Source of the DNA: Methanomicrobiales archaeon
GTDB lineage: Archaea; Halobacteriota; Methanomicrobia; Methanomicrobiales; Methanospirillaceae
Reading direction: 5' to 3'
Assembly (NCBI GenBank): GCA_037137755.1
Contig: JBAXJR010000049.1
Span: 1 to 15,460 of the forward strand
DNA length: 15,460 nt
Shown: positions 3,684 to 11,955 of the stretch, in pieces
How the letters are laid out: each line of letters starts with the position of its first letter
How positions within the stretch are numbered: position 1 is the stretch's first letter
Program-made: the position numbers and the translations under genes
The notes under the pieces: generated by a model
Databases searched by the model: none
What the model was told of the DNA's origin: nothing
Seen by the model: only the letters and a program-made list of their open reading frames with translations

Positions 3684-4781
3684 GTGAACAAACAGATACA
3701 TTTCATTTTCGCGTTCATTGCCATCTCGGCTTTACTGATTGCCGGATGTGCCCAGCCGCAGCAGATGGCGGCCCAAACCCCGCAGCCAACCACGGTAACA
3801 CCAGGATCTCACGGGCTGTCCGGCAGTAATAGCAGTGTCGTCTCCCCGGCACCCGTGCCAATATATGTTATCGGTCATCGGCAACCGGACACGGATAGCA
3901 TTGCCAGTGCAGTTGCGTATGCTGCGTTGCTGAACCGCCTATATCCCGGTTCCCCCTATATTCCTGCACGGTGTGGTGATCTGAATGCCGAGTCTCAATA
4001 TGCACTCCAGACTGCGGGCCTGGAATCACCGGTGCTGATAGAAAACGCTCAGAATAAATCTGTCATACTTGTTGATCATAACGAATACGACCAGGCGGTT
4101 AAAGGAATAGAAACTGCGAAAATTAAAGAGATCATGGATCATCACCGGCTCGGGGGAATAACAACATTGAACCCGATACGGTTCAGGAATGAACCTGTTG
4201 GATCTACTGCCACAATTATTACGATGCGATATCGCGAAGAATCGGTTACTCCAGCCCCGGAAATTGCAACAATCCTCCTCGCAGGTATTCTTTCCGATAC
4301 CCTGGGGCTCAGGATGTCAACAACGACAGACCAGGACAAAGAAGCGGTAGCAGATCTGTCGAACATGACGGGAATTGATCCGGAACGTTTTGGAAAAACC
4401 CTGATTAACAAGGGACTGGTCCTTGACGGTGTCCCCATCAGGGAACTGATTGTTCGTGATGTGAAAGAGTATACCCTGCAGGGCAGGAATGTTTCAATTG
4501 CCCAGATTATGACTGATTCAGAAGAATTTCCCCAGAAAAATAAAAAAGAAATTCACGAGACCCTCGGGGAATTTCAGACAGAACATGGATATATGGTGAG
4601 TATTGTTCTCGTAACGGATATTGTCGATCAGCGGACGTACCTGTTCGCTGCAGGTACACCGGATCTGCTGGAAAAACTCGGGTATGCAGAACAACCGGTT
4701 CTGCTTGAGGGTGTCATGTCAAGAAAACTGGATTTTTTCCCTTCGTTTGCCCGGAAATTCGAACAAATTGTTCAGGGTTGA
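3684..4781 (+). CDS. ppaC: Family II (DHH/DHHA2) Mn-dependent inorganic pyrophosphatase with N-terminal lipoprotein signal
   Basis: Motifs GHRQPDTDS, LVDHNE, MDHH, PVGSTATI, GILSDT and SRK..FFP. AAGGTGAT RBS before the GTG start. N-terminal h-region, LIAGC lipobox and Q/T/P/S linker. Confidence 0.92.
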   Translation: MNKQIHFIFAFIAISALLIAGCAQPQQMAAQTPQPTTVTPGSHGLSGSNSSVVSPAPVPIYVIGHRQPDTDSIASAVAYAALLNRLYPGSPYIPARCGDLNAESQYALQTAGLESPVLIENAQNKSVILVDHNEYDQAVKGIETAKIKEIMDHHRLGGITTLNPIRFRNEPVGSTATIITMRYREESVTPAPEIATILLAGILSDTLGLRMSTTTDQDKEAVADLSNMTGIDPERFGKTLINKGLVLDGVPIRELIVRDVKEYTLQGRNVSIAQIMTDSEEFPQKNKKEIHETLGEFQTEHGYMVSIVLVTDIVDQRTYLFAAGTPDLLEKLGYAEQPVLLEGVMSRKLDFFPSFARKFEQIVQG

Positions 4782-5359: not shown

Positions 5360-5938
5360 ATGAGATCCATTATTCTGACATTAGCCATCCTGGCACTGGT
5401 CCTTGCTATGGCCGGGGCCGGATGTACTACGACGAATCCTGTGGCCACCACTCCAACCGCAACATCCACCCCGTCTCCGACTGCCATACCGACACCCGCC
5501 GTGGCGGTGAAGCCCACGGCAAACATGTCTGCCGATCAGCAGCGGGTATTCGCGTTTGTCTCAGAGGGGGTCGTATACGGCCGTGAACACGGGAGGCAGG
5601 CGTCGCTCGCTGAATTCAATAACCCGAACGGCTCTTTCGTCCGGGGAGACCTGTTTATATTCGCAGGTGATTACAACGGGACATCCCTCGCATCCATTGC
5701 CCTGCCCCAGCGGGTGAATACGTCTTTCAACAATGATGTCGATGTGACCGGCCAGTATTACATGCGCAACAAGGTCAACCTCTCACGGAGCGGCGGCGGG
5801 TTCATCACCATCTATTTCCCGAATCCAGCCCATAACTTCACGCCAGAACCGAAGCTCTGCTACGTGCACGATGTTGATGGGACCTACTGGATTGGGGCAG
5901 GCATGTATAACCAGTCAAACGTGACGGCCCGTCCGTGA
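5360..5938 (+). CDS. Lipoprotein with a single Cache (sCache_2-like) ligand-binding domain
   Basis: Signal peptide with AGAGC lipobox and Pro/Thr linker. The domain EFNNPNGSFVRGDLFIFA.DYNG...GGGFITIYFPNP...PKLCYV..VDGTYWIGAGMY is typical of single Cache domains. Confidence 0.88.
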   Translation: MRSIILTLAILALVLAMAGAGCTTTNPVATTPTATSTPSPTAIPTPAVAVKPTANMSADQQRVFAFVSEGVVYGREHGRQASLAEFNNPNGSFVRGDLFIFAGDYNGTSLASIALPQRVNTSFNNDVDVTGQYYMRNKVNLSRSGGGFITIYFPNPAHNFTPEPKLCYVHDVDGTYWIGAGMYNQSNVTARP

Positions 5939-6108: not shown

Positions 6109-6240
6109 GTTGTTTGAATAAACCCCTGGAACACATCCGGGCCTATGATGAAACCCGGACGTGACCCTGGAATCTGGGGGGATTCGAAAAGCGGGGACCG
6201 GGTGACGTTTTGGAACCGGAAGATTTCCAATCGCTGTATT

Positions 6241-6275
6241 GATTGGCAGGAATTCCGGGGATTACTCTGCCAATC
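6241..6275 (-). terminator. Stem-loop 3' of the small peptide gene at 6286-6435
   Basis: GATTGGCAG...CTGCCAATC 9-bp stem, 10 nt past the stop codon. Confidence 0.45.
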
Positions 6276-6285
6276 CAACCGATCT

Positions 6286-6435
6286 TCAACGCGGGACAGG
6301 TGTATTCATTGGAGCATGAAGTACTACCTGCCTGATCGGGATTTCCACACCAAAATACCATGCAACCGCAATAATTGTTCCAGCCAGCGAAAGTATCAAC
6401 GAAAAAATAAGAAGAGATTTCAAAGCATCATCCAT
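6286..6435 (-). CDS. Small single-TM 'HAPxN' precursor-like peptide, 49 aa (not in ORF track)
   Basis: Translates to MDDALKSLLIFSLILSLAGTIIAVAWYFGVEIPIRQVVLHAPMNTPVPR*. GAGGT RBS upstream. Paralogous to 6704-6853 and 9509-9703. Confidence 0.9.
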   Translation of the reverse strand: MDDALKSLLIFSLILSLAGTIIAVAWYFGVEIPIRQVVLHAPMNTPVPR

Positions 6436-6703
6436 TTTCAATACCTCTGATGAAGTATGTGAATCAAATCATTAAAAAGACTCTGTTTTGTAAAAAACAA
6501 AGGTATTATTTTCAAACTAATTCTGACAGGCCCACCAGGCCCGGTCTGTACAGGACCCCGACACCGGGTTCGGGGCACCGGATAGTACCTACCTGAGAAC
6601 TCCTTACTCTTTGTTACGATACTCCGGCACTGCCTGAAACCGTGCAAAGGGTGAGCCTCCAGAAGGTACGGGCAGATAAGACCCGTGGTACGGTGCATAT
6701 ACT

Positions 6704-6853
6704 TCAATACGGGATAGGTGAATTCACCGGGGCATGAAGTACTACCTGCCTGATCGGGATTTCCACACCAAAATACCATGCAACCGCAATAATTGTTCCA
6801 GCCAGCGAGAGTATCAACGAAAAAATAAGAAGAGATTTTAAAGCATCATCCAT
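6704..6853 (-). CDS. Small single-TM 'HAPxN' precursor-like peptide, 49 aa (not in ORF track)
   Basis: Translates to MDDALKSLLIFSLILSLAGTIIAVAWYFGVEIPIRQVVLHAPVNSPIPY*. GAGGT RBS upstream. Confidence 0.9.
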   Translation of the reverse strand: MDDALKSLLIFSLILSLAGTIIAVAWYFGVEIPIRQVVLHAPVNSPIPY

Positions 6854-7037
6854 TTTCAATACCTCTGATGAAGTATGTTAATCAAATCATTAAAAAAGAC
6901 TCTGTTTTGTAAAAACAAGGGTATTATTTCAACCTTATTCTGACTGCCTGAAACTGTGCAAAAGGTGAACCTGCCGAAGGCACGGGCAGGTAAGACCCGT
7001 GATGCGGTGCTTATTCTTCCCGGGAACACCTTCTTGT

Positions 7038-9170
7038 TTATGGACTTAAAAATTTCATGACCGGCACATTGAGATCCCCGAAATTCTGCGTATTGAGCAT
7101 CTTCACGTGCGATCCTGTCACTCTCTCGTACGTGGTAGTATAAAGGTCCCGGAAGGTAATTCCGGGATCTGCCTGGACCGTGATCAGGACGACTTCGGTA
7201 AACTCATCTGACAGCCACTGTTTGATATCAGGATCGTAAACGGCCCCAAAGGACGGTTCAACGCGGTTGGCCCCGGTGAAATATAAAAGTCCCTTTGCAG
7301 TAATATTCTCCGCGATACTCTCACCAAAGCAGGTATCCACGAAAAAAACTATCTGCCGGTATTTTCCTTCACTTGACATGGTGTTCGTGATGCGGGTGAA
7401 TTCCCCGGTCTTGATCGATGAGTCCGGGAGGGGAAAAACGATATTCCCGGGAAGGCCATGACCTGCAATGTAGACAAATATATCTGTGCTGGAATTGCCC
7501 GGAATGACGAGCGGGGTCTCCCGGGTTTTATTCCCGGTAAGGACATTTATAAATGTTTCAGGAGTCACATTCCGGCCATCATAATCTACTTCGGCACCGG
7601 GACGGAGGTTCGGCCCTTGGGGCAGGTTATGGACATTGCCCTGGAGCGGGTTCTCCCGTACAGAGGGGATATCATCGTAGAGCATGAGGATGATGTGGTC
7701 ATCGGGAACACCGTTTCGCCGCAGAAGCGTGTATACCGCGAGTGCATCGGATTCATGCCGGTAGTTATCCCAGCCCTGTGACGGTCCGGCGATAATTGCC
7801 CAGAAACCCGTCCGGTTCAGGGGGGGGACATACGCTCCCCCGGAAGGTAAGGGCTCCATGAGGCTGGAAGATGCCCCGGAAAGGGCAATTGGCTTACCGG
7901 CTTTTGTTGAAGTCCCACCCTTTGCAGAGTTCAGGACCTCAACGGTATGGTAGGTACCGTTCTCTATGATCCAGTGCGAGTAGGATGTGAGCAACGGGTC
8001 AACCCCGGATACCGGGTCGAAGTCGAGCGGGCCGCTCGCACCGGTTACGGCCGGGCTCTGCCCCCTCTGGATCGCCAGGATCGTATTATGGGGACCCTGC
8101 AAATTCCAGCTTTCGTGGGTCCCGTTACCGTCAACAACGTGCCGGATTGAATCTGCAGGCGATTCAAACGGACTGGTGTCCTGCCTGGCCGATGTGTAGG
8201 CAGCGAGCAGGAGTGCATCATAGGCCGGGGCTGCATAATCGGTGGGAGCATGCCCGAATTTTGCCTGGTATGCGGCCGTAAAGCCGCTTGACGGGTCTGA
8301 TGTCGGCGATGTCCCTTCGAGCCCTTCCGCATCCGGCCCGAGGGAACTGACCAGGGCCGGCGTGGCAGCATCATCGATTAAGAATAGTTTTGCCGGTTTT
8401 CCGGAGCGGTTCATGGCCCTTTTGATCCTGGCTGCATCGGACGGGCCTGAGGCTGCGATAATATAGTCAGGGTTTGTACTGAGTGCACTGGCAACATCCT
8501 CGTCAAGGGTACCCGAACCCGGGTCGAACTGCCGGACATATGTGAGATCGATTCCGGATTCTGTTGCAAAGAAACCGGTCCACTCGTAGAATGTATCGCC
8601 GTAGGTAGAATTCTCGGCAAGGAGTGCCACCCGTCCGGCCCCCTTCGCAAGTAAAACCGAAACGATAACCTTTACCTGAGCTACATCTCCCTGGGCTGTC
8701 CGCCAGAAATAACCTTTCCCTCCGAAGGCCCGGATGATATCGCCAGAGGTCGCAAGGGGGCTGATAAGGAGTTTATGCTTCCGGATAAATGCCGGTGCAA
8801 GGGAATAGACATCATCGCTGGTCGGGGGGCCGATTACCGTCCTGATGGAATCATCCGCGAGCAGTTCTTCGCCAAGCTGCTTCGTATTGCCGGAATTAGT
8901 ATCTTTGTACACGAGTTCGATCGGTCTTCCACCGATCCCTCCCTGTTGGTTGATGGTGTCTTTTGCCCATTCAAGAGGCTCTTTAAGTTCTACATCGCCA
9001 GTCAGGGGCAGGAGGACGCCGATCCGGACCGGCGTATGTGAATGGAAGATGGTGTAGCCAACCCAGGCTCCTGTTACAAGAATTACTATGATCACTACGA
9101 TGAGCCCTGCCTTTTTTTTCGAAAAAATCGCGATCACCCGAGGAGCTGTACCGGACCAAAATGACCCCAT
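7038..9170 (-). CDS. Membrane-anchored fusion of a type I (Leu/Ile/Val-like) substrate-binding domain and peptidase C13 (legumain/GPI8 family)
   Basis: KKK plus TM anchor. PBP part: RIGVLLPLTG...INQQGGIGGRPIELVYKD, VIGP.TS, YDA.LL. C13 part: WDNYRHESD, GVPDDHIILMLYDD, VDY.G..VT, YIAGHG (catalytic His) and VDTC (catalytic Cys). Start re-called to ATG 9170. Confidence 0.93.
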   Translation of the reverse strand: MGSFWSGTAPRVIAIFSKKKAGLIVVIIVILVTGAWVGYTIFHSHTPVRIGVLLPLTGDVELKEPLEWAKDTINQQGGIGGRPIELVYKDTNSGNTKQLGEELLADDSIRTVIGPPTSDDVYSLAPAFIRKHKLLISPLATSGDIIRAFGGKGYFWRTAQGDVAQVKVIVSVLLAKGAGRVALLAENSTYGDTFYEWTGFFATESGIDLTYVRQFDPGSGTLDEDVASALSTNPDYIIAASGPSDAARIKRAMNRSGKPAKLFLIDDAATPALVSSLGPDAEGLEGTSPTSDPSSGFTAAYQAKFGHAPTDYAAPAYDALLLAAYTSARQDTSPFESPADSIRHVVDGNGTHESWNLQGPHNTILAIQRGQSPAVTGASGPLDFDPVSGVDPLLTSYSHWIIENGTYHTVEVLNSAKGGTSTKAGKPIALSGASSSLMEPLPSGGAYVPPLNRTGFWAIIAGPSQGWDNYRHESDALAVYTLLRRNGVPDDHIILMLYDDIPSVRENPLQGNVHNLPQGPNLRPGAEVDYDGRNVTPETFINVLTGNKTRETPLVIPGNSSTDIFVYIAGHGLPGNIVFPLPDSSIKTGEFTRITNTMSSEGKYRQIVFFVDTCFGESIAENITAKGLLYFTGANRVEPSFGAVYDPDIKQWLSDEFTEVVLITVQADPGITFRDLYTTTYERVTGSHVKMLNTQNFGDLNVPVMKFLSP

Positions 9171-9474
9171 GGTGAAATCACGTTTTACAGGGTAGCCGTT
9201 ACATCCAGCCCGTGAGGAGAGGTGGTATGATCTCAAAGATAAGGATTTGTATCCGCTGACTGGCCAGTATTGACACTTTTGTTTAAAATGCCACAATGCT
9301 CAGGGGTCGTTGTGGACTCACCCTTTAGGTTTGGCAAGGCCGGGAGTGGGGGTTAACGGTGAGCCGGGGCCGATCAGGAGCATATATCCATTTCCGGTAG
9401 CGGATGCCGGTGCCGGTTTCATGCCATGGGCGTTGCATCCGCGGCAATACATGGATTATTAAATGTGCCTGATC

Positions 9475-9500
9475 AAAAAAAAGTCCGGATCTTTCCGGTC
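9475..9500 (-). terminator. Hairpin plus U-tract terminator after the 64-aa peptide gene
   Basis: Minus strand reads CCGGA-aaga-TCCGG-ac-TTTTTTTT, starting just after the stop at 9509. Confidence 0.6.
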
Positions 9501-9508
9501 ATTTACTG

Positions 9509-9703
9509 TTAATATAAGTTATACGGGTTCGCTCCTGATCCGGGATTTGGTTTATTCATGGGCGCGTGAAGCACTGCTGCCTGAAGGGCCGGAAGATCCA
9601 CGGCGAAATACCATGCGAGTGCGATGATTGTGCCGATTATTGCCAGTGCAATAACGAATATGACGAGATTTTTCAGTGCGTCGGATTGTTGAGTTTCGGA
9701 CAT
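9509..9703 (-). CDS. Small single-TM 'HAPxN' precursor-like peptide, 64 aa
   Basis: MSETQQSDALKNLVIFVIALAIIGTIIALAWYFAVDLPALQAAVLHAPMNKPNPGSGANPYNLY. AAGGT RBS and a TATAAG box at about 9741-9746. Shares DALK, GTIIA.AWYF and LHAPxN with the two 49-aa ORFs. Confidence 0.9.
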   Translation of the reverse strand: MSETQQSDALKNLVIFVIALAIIGTIIALAWYFAVDLPALQAAVLHAPMNKPNPGSGANPYNLY

Positions 9704-9829
9704 GGGATCATTACCTTACTGTCGTTTACTTTTGGAATAACTTATACATGTTTGAAGGTGCGTGGAACACTCCTCTGGAAGGAGTTCTTTGTCATTTTAT
9801 TTTTTTAATTTATCTTAACCATGTTTATG

Positions 9830-10350
9830 GACAGGTGAAGCGCTACCTTGAGATCAGGAACAATGCGGTGTTTCTCTCCGGCAATGGCCTGCTTGTGACC
9901 GATCCTCCAGCAGGCCTTTAAAAATTCGATTTCCGTGCAGGATGTCCATGGATTCTTAAAAGACTATGGAGGGGCGAGATCGAAGATTCCCCTTGAACAC
10001 AATCTCGGGTGTATGATGAGGCACAGCGGGCCTGGGATGCCGAACGGGTGATAAGAAAAGCGGGGACCAGGCGACGTCAGAACCGGAGGATTTCTTCAAA
10101 CTTGCGGAACGGATGAATTCCTGGGCGTTAATGGTTGCGTTGATTGGTGAGGGTCAGGAGATTCATCTTGGCGAGGAATCCGGGTTGGCACAATGGAATG
10201 ATGTGTTATCGGTGATGCAGAAACCGTGGACGTGTTCAATAGCCCGGAGAAGATTACCGATGTTTTTACGAAGGCCGGGAAACGGGAGAAGAATAACGTT
10301 CTGGACCTTTCCATCACCCTCCGGTCCCCTCTCGCCGAAGATGTCGCTCG
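9830..10350 (+). pseudogene. Internal fragment of a DUF2075-like (SF1 helicase-related) gene with multiple frameshifts
   Basis: Stitched reading: AVFLSGNG.LV / ILQQAFKNS..VQDVHGFLKDYGG / VYDEAQRAWDAERV / SEPEDF..LAERMNSWALMVALIGEGQEIHLGEESGLAQW / LDLSITLRS.LAEDVA. No Walker A motif and no credible start. Ends are approximate. Confidence 0.75.
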
Positions 10351-10610
10351 AAATCCTCGATTCCAAGGAAGACTAAATCCCAGGAAGCCAGGAAGAATCC
10401 CCCATATCCAGCCCCATCTGTGACAAGTCTAGATATCTCCATCCAACCGGGTCTCATTGAAAGGTCAAATACCAGTCGGCATGCATTCCACTCCCTGTTG
10501 CCGGCATTATGCGGTTGAGTTATCTCCAGCTGCCAAAGGGGACTGTGGAGCTGTGCATCTATGCGGAATGTCAGCTAAGCAAGCAGATTTTGGAGAGGGA
10601 TGGGAAGTAA
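10337..10610 (+). pseudogene. Diverged, frameshifted remnant of the 3' end of the 1594-2757 gene
   Basis: Reads KMSL...PRKTKSQEARKNPP...VTSLDISI..GLIER / KYQSACIPLPVAGIMRLSYLQLPKGTVELCIYAECQLSKQILERDGK*. The last 47 aa are 38/47 identical to the C-terminus of 1594-2757. Confidence 0.92.
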
Positions 10611-10708
10611 GGAAAAGGGAGGCATTGTGCTATATGTAATACTCTCATGTTAGATTTTAAGTGAAAAATATCCGGATAAAAAAATTGACCCTTTTCCCAC
10701 TCTGGGTT

Positions 10709-11896
10709 TCATGCAATTTCTAATATTGCTATTGTTCTACCGTTACTTTTTAATTGAGAACGATTATTTTCAAGATGTTTTTCCATTCGCATTACTTGTT
10801 GTGGAGAAAAAAACTGATCAAGTGGGAAACACGTCCAATAACTCATAATATTATTTCTGACGTCCCGATTAATCGGGATCCATGCTTTTCCATCCTTTGC
10901 ATCGACCTGAACAAATTTGTCTGTTGAGCACGCATTATAACCCCAAATCAACGGAAATCCAAGCCATAGATCAATTGGTGTATCAGTGACATCATAGGAA
11001 TCCCCATCAAATTCATTGAGATATTTTTGGCCAAGTAGTTGCTCAGCTTTCATTTTAGTTGCAAGGAGTTCGGCCTCTGTAACCCCATTCATTTTATTTA
11101 AATTACTCTTTAATAGTGGTAAATATAGAGGATTTCTTTTTATTCCAGTCTTATCTTTCAATTCGGCCATTTCTGCTAAACTACCAGCAAAACTTGCAAA
11201 AGTATGATTTAAACTCATAAAATGACCAAATTCATGTGTTAATTGAGAATCCCCCAACCCATAGTTTTCTCCATCTGAAATTATCGGACTCTGCCGGTAT
11301 GGGTTTAATATAATTAAGGGAGAATCTAGTGCCGTATATGACTGCCCAGCTGGGCTATCCGGATACTTTCCACCCCCCCATCGATATAATAACACCACTC
11401 TGTGGTAAAAATCCTTATTTGTAGGATCATCTACTCGTTTTTGGATTTCTTTTCTAATAGCATCATTATCAGCTTCTTTTCCACCATCTAAGGTATTCAT
11501 CGCATCATTATTCTCAAATACATACCTGATATCCTGGTTATCTAACCCAAAATTACAACCAGCACTTTCTAGTTGACGATTTGCAAGATTTATCCAATCT
11601 TTTATAAAATTATCATCAAGGGTTGGATGTCGTGTTAAACTTCTTAAGTAGGGTGTTTTTGGAATCACCTTTCCGTTTACAATTTCATACAGAGGTTGTG
11701 ATCCGTCTTTTTTAGAAGTTAATATCACAGTCACTTTTAATAGAACCGCACTCCAGGTTCTTTTAGATCCTTTATCAAGAAGTTTGCGTAAAGAAATTGG
11801 TTGTTCATAATTCGACACTTTATCTGCAAGTTTACGTATACTCACCGATGGGCCACTTAATCCGCAGAAGGATGCCACTTGTCGTAAGGTTTTCAT
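10709..11896 (-). CDS. Metzincin zinc metalloprotease, M43 (pappalysin/ulilysin-like)
   Basis: HEFGHFMSLNHTF zinc motif, D.VTDTP, NNIMSY Met-turn and FSPQQVMRM. Start re-called to ATG 11896 (GGAG RBS). AT-rich, with no obvious signal peptide. Confidence 0.88.
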   Translation of the reverse strand: MKTLRQVASFCGLSGPSVSIRKLADKVSNYEQPISLRKLLDKGSKRTWSAVLLKVTVILTSKKDGSQPLYEIVNGKVIPKTPYLRSLTRHPTLDDNFIKDWINLANRQLESAGCNFGLDNQDIRYVFENNDAMNTLDGGKEADNDAIRKEIQKRVDDPTNKDFYHRVVLLYRWGGGKYPDSPAGQSYTALDSPLIILNPYRQSPIISDGENYGLGDSQLTHEFGHFMSLNHTFASFAGSLAEMAELKDKTGIKRNPLYLPLLKSNLNKMNGVTEAELLATKMKAEQLLGQKYLNEFDGDSYDVTDTPIDLWLGFPLIWGYNACSTDKFVQVDAKDGKAWIPINRDVRNNIMSYWTCFPLDQFFSPQQVMRMEKHLENNRSQLKSNGRTIAILEIA

Positions 11897-11955
11897 AAAG
11901 GTTATTCTCCAACGTTGTTTCCAGTCCCGATTCTGAATTATATTCCACAATTTAC

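Follow-up and report, generated by a model that had tools for sequence, protein, structure and literature searches.

Variable tails behind a conserved membrane-helix head with an invariant asparagine: a family of small methanogen genes linked to a legumain-like peptidase

Introduction

The vacuolar processing enzymes of plants, asparaginyl endopeptidases of peptidase family C13, process cyclotides, the sunflower trypsin inhibitor and 2S albumins. Legumains cut after Asn. Surface sorting offers other pairs of a short signal and a dedicated enzyme, such as LPXTG and sortase, PGF-CTERM and archaeosortase, or the glycosylphosphatidylinositol (GPI) signal and GPI8, which is itself a C13 enzyme. Here we describe a locus of a Methanomicrobiales archaeon (contig JBAXJR010000049.1 of assembly GCA_037137755.1; the whole stretch of 15,460 nucleotides (nt) is called the window below), in which three small paralogous genes, copies A, B and D, lie beside a gene for a membrane-anchored protein with a C13 domain. 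Each small gene encodes a conserved N-terminal module, the head, that contains one hydrophobic helix and ends in Pro-x-Asn (PxN), followed by a variable tail, or payload. On balance, we favour the reading that A, B and D are pre-pro-peptide genes whose payload would be released by C13 cleavage after the invariant Asn. To judge from the sequences, the tails are probably cut free by the Asn-specific protease encoded next door.

The targeting sequence and pro-segment of plant C13 precursors have putative counterparts here before a conserved Asn, and C13 cleavage after this residue would free short or cysteine-paired peptides. Unlike the plant systems, the genes are archaeal, and the enzyme is anchored in the membrane as a fusion with a periplasmic binding domain. 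Since the Asn is the last residue of the head and not of the product, no cyclisation is implied, again unlike in plants. By analogy, the C13-mediated maturation of short and cysteine-rich peptides in plants would be the closest mechanistic parallel to the putative cleavage. The logic may also be likened to a sorting signal turned round, with a motif by a helix, dispersed substrates and one membrane cysteine peptidase: like sortase, archaeosortase and GPI8 pairs, the system has an invariant motif beside a transmembrane (TM) helix, dispersed substrates of which few lie beside the enzyme, and matching phyletic patterns. Unlike in those C-terminal signals, the helix-plus-motif unit is N-terminal, and cutting would free the payload rather than anchor it.

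The Phr peptides of Bacillus and other RRNPP pheromones likewise come from small precursors with a hydrophobic export segment, a variable C-terminal peptide of 5-10 residues and distinct tails among paralogs, but the junction described here has an invariant PxN, and the family also carries large cysteine-rich payloads. The Phr N-terminal model TIGR04429 matched one member only (E 0.47, 11 bits against a cut-off of 25), and Pfam scans found no RRNPP/TPR-type receptor among the open reading frames (ORFs) of the window and the recurrent neighbours. Families in which one leader is shared by many cores and a cysteine protease is at work, such as C39 bacteriocins and Nif11/NHLP peptides, also combine a single leader with hypervariable cores and tandem arrays. 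Unlike in the double-glycine and Nif11 families, the leader here holds a membrane helix, the junction is PxN instead of Gly-Gly, and the C13 domain would be extracellular, not cytoplasmic like C39. Double-glycine bacteriocin traits are absent from the window, with PxN at the junction and neither a C39 peptidase nor an ATP-binding cassette exporter encoded, and the E492 microcin model scored far below its cut-off (E 0.053).

A conserved leader and a variable core in one small gene product are also found in peptides made on the ribosome and modified after translation (RiPPs). Pfam scans of 12 large window ORFs and 13 recurrent-neighbour representatives detected no RiPP modification enzyme (radical SAM, YcaO, lanthipeptide synthetase or similar). 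A class I methyltransferase is encoded 3.6 kb from copy D, with no recurrence in neighbour clusters. As no modification enzyme is linked to them, the genes do not belong to the RiPP classes considered.

Results

Two tandem paralogs differ at their C-terminal ends

Copies A and B are annotated from the ORF list, alignment and profile matches as follows.

6286-6435 including stop, minus strand: copy A, 49-codon putative precursor gene
6304-6306, minus strand: Asn44 codon of copy A, the end of its head (codons 1-44)
6289-6303, minus strand: tail of copy A, TPVPR
6286-6288, minus strand: stop codon of copy A
6436-6527, minus strand: conserved region upstream of copy A (promoter, ribosome-binding site), duplicated with the gene
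6704-6853 including stop, minus strand: copy B, 49-codon putative precursor gene
6722-6724, minus strand: Asn44 codon of copy B
6707-6721, minus strand: tail of copy B, SPIPY
6854-6944, minus strand: conserved region upstream of copy B

A preliminary description of this DNA had noted that codons 1-42 of the two genes differ only silently and that amino-acid changes are concentrated in the last seven codons. Both points are reproduced by our alignment: codons 1-42 carry four changes, all synonymous and in the third position (A/B: Leu5 TTG/TTA, Leu15 CTT/CTC, Ala41 GCT/GCC and Pro42 CCA/CCG), and codons 43-49 carry M/V, T/S, V/I and R/Y, with Asn44, Pro46 and Pro48 unchanged. By Nei-Gojobori counting, there are 4 synonymous steps and 1 non-synonymous step in the 44-codon head, against 0 and 4 in the 5-codon tail (Fisher's test, p = 0.048, on very few events). 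The caution expressed in the same description, that two copies are a small sample, was justified, and the contrast between A and B is thin evidence when taken alone.

Both genes have GAGGT 7 nt 5' of the ATG. The segments 6284-6527 and 6702-6944 match at 93%, with ~90 nt of near-identical upstream DNA, and the similarity falls away directly 3' of the stop codon. Since the near-identity reaches ~90 nt upstream, the duplicated unit comprises promoter and gene, in tandem. A third close copy, copy C on contig C52 of the same genome, is a mosaic, with a 3' flank like that of A and a tail like that of B. Between A and C, 5 of 15 tail bases differ, compared with 15 of 222 bases in flank and head (p = 0.0045, post hoc); this excess of tail changes between matching flanks indicates that tail change is not merely the edge of a duplication.

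The head module defines a large methanogen family

Copies A, B and D are members of a large methanogen family, previously without description. The third member in the window was recognised by profile matches.

9509-9703, minus strand: copy D, 64-codon paralog with a longer N-terminus and a 14-residue tail starting KPNP
9554-9556, minus strand: Asn50 codon of copy D

The genome holds five paralogs, three in the window and two on contig C52. A word-indexed search with a profile of these five returned 76 relatives of 49-102 residues, the named ones being labelled 'hypothetical protein' and coming from Methanoregula or Methanomicrobiales metagenome-assembled genomes. A genome scan yielded 24 loci, all in Methanoregula/Methanomicrobiales genomes by their record titles, and when 1.84 billion cluster representatives were searched exhaustively with a profile, 464 matched at E <= 1e-3 and 218 at E <= 1e-10. 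The head module is present in 53 of the 228 genomes of the taxonomic family to which the window belongs, with up to 22 matches per genome; 4-7 copies are found in several genomes of genus g6 that consist of a single contig. When the phylum was sampled evenly (401 genomes), the head was found in 10 of the 29 genomes of the same family (own genome included) and in 1 of the 372 outside it, there as a borderline partial match inside a 677-residue frame. Within the genomes searched, the gene family is confined to one methanogen family, Methanoregula and its relatives. Viral contigs gave 190 pattern matches, none of which was confirmed as a relative. No Pfam family matches copies A and B, NCBIfam models compared with A, B, D and five long members gave nothing at E <= 0.05 or near a curated cut-off, and the best scores of an ESM Atlas look-up with copy D (0.80-0.81) were at chance level.

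The head comprises ~44-50 residues: a short N-terminus with Lys/Arg beside the helix, one hydrophobic helix, an acidic residue, LPxQ and, 5-8 residues on, Pro-x-Asn, the motif after the helix thus reading (D/E)LPxQ...PxN. Only P38, P47 and N49 are invariant columns among 56 unique heads. All 120 unique members have the Asn (97% also have Pro at -2), as do all 248 full-length head matches, and the 135 whole-head matches among 147 new representatives end in PxN without exception. The other 12 were partial matches and were left out; among them are junctions that differ, for example by an extra Trp ahead of the Asn or by the lack of an Asn. The invariance of PxN therefore holds for full matches and is in part due to this choice. 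The best 150 profile matches have the head at the N-terminus (residues 1-50, or behind a mis-called start).

Inspected by eye for signal features, the head has a Lys at position 11, 18 hydrophobic positions and an h-region long enough for a stable anchor. The alignments, again by eye, show Ala28 conserved in at least 90% of members and Ala30 common, forming a small-x-small site before an aromatic W/H-Y-F stretch. In divergent members the N-terminus is strongly basic and the helix is followed by an acidic residue; several head matches contain in-frame stops. The family and its head/payload architecture are solid and well supported.

Tails vary between classes and are maintained within them

Beyond the Asn, conservation ends abruptly. 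Positions after it have 3.6-4.1 bits of entropy in the 120 unique members, almost the maximum, and tail length ranges from 1 to 105 residues (median 13; at most 15 residues in 138 of 248 members, at least 25 in 93 of 248). Short tails recur in classes, among them SPIPY, TPVPR, GMMDPW and xxCxPxC loops. Identical tails (SPIPY, GMMDPW, TPVPR) are shared between diverged heads and between genomes; that of copy A, TPVPR, for example, also follows a long-subtype head in another record. The long tails (25-105 residues) are cysteine-rich, and a PEGA domain serves as payload in one member. Cys accounts for 8.9% of residues in tails and 0.4% in heads, and its number is even in 129 of the 141 Cys-bearing tails.

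The residue directly after the Asn is also restricted. Pro is never found at +1 (0/248), with a chance probability of about 2e-7, while it accounts for 6% of tail residues and 10-21% at +2, +4 and +5. In 135 of 248 members the +1 residue is S, G, A or T (Gly 39, Ala 28). Peptide bonds before Pro withstand most proteases, and the exclusion of Pro from +1 therefore fits the look of a scissile bond.

Close pairs of genes reveal how differently the two parts evolve. Heads have a non-synonymous divergence (pN) of 0.01-0.04 against a synonymous divergence (pS) of 0.12-0.33, a pN/pS of ~0.1 that signifies purifying selection. Tails of the same class are conserved as well, with 0 non-synonymous steps for SPIPY/SPIPY and one each for GMMDPW/GMTDPW and MVMPKMPI/MVIPKMPI. 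In pairs of different class, tail pN is 0.38-0.53, exceeding head pN by a factor of 13 to 38. The expectation of the preliminary description that substitution rates before and after the Asn would not be uniform is thus borne out, with purified heads and fast-changing tails between classes. Its assumption that the two ORFs are real genes also holds, given the hundreds of relatives and a head pN far below pS. Since identical tails persist and are exchanged across heads, they are discrete, maintained entities and not unconstrained ends.

The proposal of a conserved leader with a diversifying core stands for the most part. Heads are conserved across the family, conservation stops sharply at the Asn, and the tails are variable and recurring; the type of leader has to be revised, because the head is a membrane-helix or signal-like module with a short conserved pro-segment and not a soluble RiPP leader. 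With cysteine-rich payloads of 25-105 residues in the family, 'pre-pro-protein with an Asn processing site' is a better term than 'RiPP core'.

Several loci illustrate the range of payloads. A tandem array of five family genes lies at L071:295-1654 (plus strand), and L072:2727-4986 holds four complete family genes, with a truncated fifth at 5405-5488. As all tails differ within each array and each array adjoins a fusion gene, some genomes have a cassette-like repertoire. A payload of ~80 residues at L077:1007-1402 (plus strand) consists of Gly-Gly-Asn-type repeats and is neither short nor Cys-rich. Many payloads of 30-40 residues contain C-x2-C-x3-C and, later, C-x3-C-x3-5-C (L078:13904-14149, L089:8720-9070, P0102, P0143), a spacing that suggests a disulfide-stapled helical hairpin.

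A legumain-like fusion protein is encoded beside the head genes

Copy D lies upstream of a 752-codon ORF with a C13 domain, and copies A and B lie downstream of it.

7038-9170, minus strand: gene for a membrane-anchored fusion of a TM helix, a type-I periplasmic binding domain and a legumain-like C13 peptidase

The frame is open from a TTG at 9296 (7038-9296, 752 codons), and its likely start is an ATG at 9170. The protein begins with KKK followed by the hydrophobic TM helix; the binding domain matches PF13458 (E 2.5e-31) and the peptidase domain PF01650 (residues 499-744, 173.1 bits against a cut-off of 22.8, E 1.1e-50). The best structure match of the C13 domain is mammalian legumain (E 1.9e-37), followed by plant vacuolar processing enzymes; peptide asparaginyl ligase and GPI transamidase structures match as well (E 1e-26 to 1e-28). 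The catalytic His (AGHG) and Cys (DTCFGES) align with those of legumain, and His613, Cys656 and NYRH are invariant in 16 orthologues. In legumain, the S1 pocket is formed by the Arg-His of NYRH, a Ser and an Asp further on, and a Glu after the catalytic Cys. Candidates for this pocket in the fusion protein are NYRH, an E-x-S segment and Y-D, all aligned and invariant; the catalytic Cys is followed by Phe.

The basic stretch before the helix, by the positive-inside rule, and the nature of the binding domain would place the C13 domain outside the cell. A complex prediction between the ectodomain (residues 85-752, 16-row alignment) and residues 30-64 of copy D (63-row alignment) gave scores of 0.00, 0.51 and 0.01 in three runs against a mark of 0.32, which speaks neither for nor against the proposal.

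Head genes and C13 genes are linked in position and occurrence

All five head copies of the genome adjoin the C13 gene or its remnant. A fusion gene lies within ~2 kb at 5 of the 24 independent loci (L068, L071, L072, L078, L087), and at least 14 of the 40 genomes that have both genes carry a head gene at most 3.5 kb from a C13 gene. These include G000, G002, G003, G012, G023, G033, G098, G109 (at both its C13 genes), G110, G114, G134, G160, G189 and G191. The arrangement varies between genomes, with head genes upstream, downstream or divergent and with different payloads. The two genes also co-occur.

All 228 genomes of the family: both 40, head only 13, PF01650 only 33, neither 142
Genus g6 (108 genomes): both 33, head only 9, PF01650 only 8, neither 58

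With kinship ignored, Fisher's test for head and PF01650 gives 6e-14 for all genomes and 3e-12 within g6. Of the genomes with at least 4 head copies, 31 of 32 have PF01650, the exception being 70% complete; of those with 1-3 copies, 9 of 21 have it. Among the 33 'PF01650 only' genomes, 10 owe their place to weak matches in very different long frames. As C13 genes occur in genomes without a head, the enzyme must have other substrates or roles. Genes for binding-domain/C13 fusions occur in genomes of genera g15, g8 and g7 (for example L045, L058, L059, L062) in which the head was not found; any substrates of these fusions must be of another kind. A crude screen for 'helix + PxN' in the 1.5-kb flanks of C13 genes of head-less genomes (L045, L046, L058, L059, L062 and others) found no alternative substrate family; it returned one doubtful ORF in L042 and recovered a divergent true family member in L055.

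Metatranscriptome contigs cover copy A

Four metatranscriptome runs, from one study and two freshwater samples, hold parts of 6150-9800 as assembled contigs. RNA contigs with zero differences to 6247-6416 and 6204-6387 contain copy A with its copy-specific 3' flank, and others cover parts of the C13 gene (7154-8944). Copies B and D are without cover, which says nothing either way. Transcription, one of the checks named in the preliminary description, thus receives weak support for copy A.

A second cassette and the surroundings of the locus

Contig C52 (G000) carries a second, paralogous cassette at ~7250-9935 (loci L003, L005 and L057) that is 86-93% identical to that of the window and keeps the same gene order: a D-like copy, a C13 remnant that retains the last 113 codons, and an A/B-like copy, with a Cache-domain gene on the other side. 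The deletion in the remnant corresponds to 7450-9298 of the window. Because C52 begins with the same 55 nt with which the window contig ends, both cassettes may be on one chromosome, at a distance of ~13-16 kb. Further features of the window are as follows.

6123-6227 and 9989-10094: ~105-nt direct repeats, 74% identical, bracketing the whole A-B-C13-D cassette
6629-6705, strand unassigned: first copy of a 77-nt direct repeat, just 3' of copy B
6943-7019, strand unassigned: second copy of the 77-nt repeat, 86% identical, just 3' of the C13 gene
9475-9498: hairpin and T-run, just 3' of copy D
5360-5938, plus strand: gene of 192 codons, whose product has an N-terminus like a signal sequence, a linker rich in Thr and Pro, and a Cache domain
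10709-11950, minus strand: 413-codon ORF, 1 kb upstream of copy D, whose product has the zinc-protease motif HExxH
2481-2760 and 10337-10614: 280-nt direct repeat, 74% identical, far apart in the window

Relatives of the ~105-nt repeat lie on C52 at 7174-7302, 8883-8967, 6345-6463 and 4630-4727; its 7 matches in the genome, including the query's own place, are found only on these two contigs, and the repeats may be traces of how the cassette was duplicated. The gene for the 192-codon Cache protein was duplicated along with the cassette (C52, 9211-9789). The 413-codon ORF has a weak match to Peptidase_M43 (E 4.4e-6, one short stretch) and does not recur beside other family members. An Rfam scan of the whole window gave 0 matches at gathering thresholds, and RNA folding of both 77-nt repeats and the 3' flank of copy A gave z-scores of 0.54, -0.21 and -0.36, with no sign of structured RNA. 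Besides C13, recurrent neighbours of head genes are a Bmp/PnrA-like binding protein (5 loci) and a PAS histidine kinase (6 loci). Both were considered as parts of the system and set aside, since they are too widespread in these genomes and their position varies too much.

Discussion

The genes described here are coding and conserved, their products consist of a head and a payload with a sharp boundary at the Asn, and they are linked to C13 genes; from these observations we infer the topology, the cleavage, the responsible enzyme and the peptide role. In the mechanism that we propose, the helix would insert the precursor into the membrane with the payload outside, and may also serve as a cleavable Sec signal through the small-x-small site before W/H-Y-F. 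The outward-facing, membrane-anchored C13 domain of the neighbouring protein would then cut the Asn-X bond, and the payload would leave, here as TPVPR, SPIPY and the 14-mer starting KPNP, and in other members as cysteine-paired loops or cysteine-rich mini-proteins of 25-105 residues. The PEGA payload and the basic N-termini of divergent members fit a location of the payload outside the cell.

What the products might do is a matter of conjecture. Multicopy, patchy and decay-prone, hypervariable between classes yet conserved within them, the genes resemble those for secreted signals or antagonistic peptides, and our guess is that the released peptides have one of these roles, with strain-specific repertoires. 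Tentatively, the locus could belong to an undescribed peptide-export system in which a surface fusion of legumain and binding domain cuts after the invariant Asn of a shared head inserted in the membrane and frees short proline-rich peptides and disulfide-paired mini-proteins. The products of such a system would perhaps be pherotype-like signals, possibly sensed by the fused binding domain, or antagonistic 'archaeocins'.

A number of observations weigh against release by the C13 enzyme. The cleavage product and the C13 activity are both predictions from sequence, and a Phe stands where legumain has the Glu of its S1 pocket beside the catalytic Cys. The helix flanks of the core subfamily carry little charge, which leaves divergent members and the kind of payload as the basis for the topology. 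Some tails are only 1-3 residues long and make little sense as released products. The majority of head genes are scattered, and tens of kb or more separate them from a C13 gene; 13 head-positive genomes have no PF01650 match, and six of these, with a single head copy each, are 94-99% complete. Conversely, 33 PF01650-positive genomes have no head, a pattern that extends to whole genera, g15 (13/25) and g8 (3/3). As related genomes are not independent, the Fisher values are not strict probabilities. The RNA contigs, finally, have a depth of ~3 and come from one study, and DNA carry-over may explain them.

The alternative that survives best, although we consider it doubtful, is that the head is a permanent membrane anchor. 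Payloads would then stay tethered as variable surface peptides or mini-proteins, and PxN would be a structural hinge or a docking motif; docking on the binding-protein domain of the neighbouring protein is an example to which we give no more credit. An anchor would account for a helix that is unusually conserved for a mere signal sequence, for the PEGA payload, a domain typical of cell-surface proteins, and for the many head genes far from any C13 gene, including those of the 13 genomes without PF01650. It would also make a strong coincidence of the invariant Asn beside a protease family that cuts after Asn, it does not explain why Pro is missing at +1 despite the Pro-rich tails, and a 5-residue tail ~15 residues from the membrane is hardly a surface structure.

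Could the C13 enzyme instead act as GPI8 or the peptide asparaginyl ligases of plants do, as a transpeptidase that cuts after Asn, joins the membrane-bound head to an acceptor amine and leaves the tail as a drifting leaving group? The structure matches to GPI transamidase and peptide asparaginyl ligase, the catalytic Cys motif that starts DTC as in GPI8, and the very short tails agree with this idea. A leaving group should drift, but identical tails persist across genomes while their heads gain synonymous changes, and the even Cys counts and the conserved payload classes of 25-105 residues likewise speak for tails that matter in themselves. We therefore regard transpeptidation as improbable.

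The contrast between A and B might also be devoid of function and mark the edge of a recent tandem duplication or of a gene-conversion tract ending near the stop codon. This explanation takes its appeal from the near-identity ~90 nt upstream, the collapse of similarity right after the stop codon and the mosaic copy C, which shows that recombination does occur at the locus. It is countered by the same sharp Asn boundary in hundreds of unrelated members, by the A/C comparison, in which tails differ while flanks match, and by the TPVPR tail on a different head subtype in another record, and it appears a shade less credible still than transpeptidation.

Autocatalytic release, in which the Asn side chain would form a succinimide and break the Asn-X bond without a protease, as at intein C-termini, is very unlikely. 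It would be at ease with the invariant Asn, the frequent small or nucleophilic +1 residues and the head-positive genomes without C13, but no fold that could drive cyclisation is recognisable in the 19-residue segment, +1 is not limited to Cys, Ser or Thr (Gly and Ala being common), and the phyletic and positional link to C13 would be left unexplained. Least of all do we believe that the 49-residue products are small membrane peptides like type-I toxins, directed against the membrane of the producer itself: shortness, a single helix and multicopy tandem genes in intergenic-looking DNA would suit this, but extracellular-type payloads of up to 105 residues are found behind the same head, the non-helical PxN segment is conserved, and an Rfam scan and folding found no antisense RNA family or structured element.

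In a search-level look at the literature, we found no prokaryotic C13 peptidase with a substrate family and no paper joining Methanoregula and legumain; in PMC10885120, asparaginyl endopeptidase appears only in the reference list, and 'legumain' and 'archaea' have 0 occurrences. As far as literature searches reach, prokaryotic C13 peptidases have no known substrates. If the proposed peptide-export system is real, the genes described here would be the first substrate set for such an enzyme and a prokaryotic counterpart of the plant maturation of cysteine-rich peptides. The locus offers a cheap and concrete test, with one protease, short synthetic substrates and an invariant Asn, and the family is a catalogue of hundreds of natural payloads that include 5-residue peptides and small cysteine-paired folds.

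If cleavage after the Asn takes place, the locus may supply biotechnology with an Asn-specific protease or ligase that is tethered to the membrane and works at neutral pH, and the head would be a new N-terminal processing signal, now missed by gene callers and family databases. To our knowledge, peptide-based communication or antagonism is almost unexplored in methanogens. Cleavage by the C13 enzyme would also explain a patchy, multicopy gene family in environmentally important methanogens of freshwater and peat.

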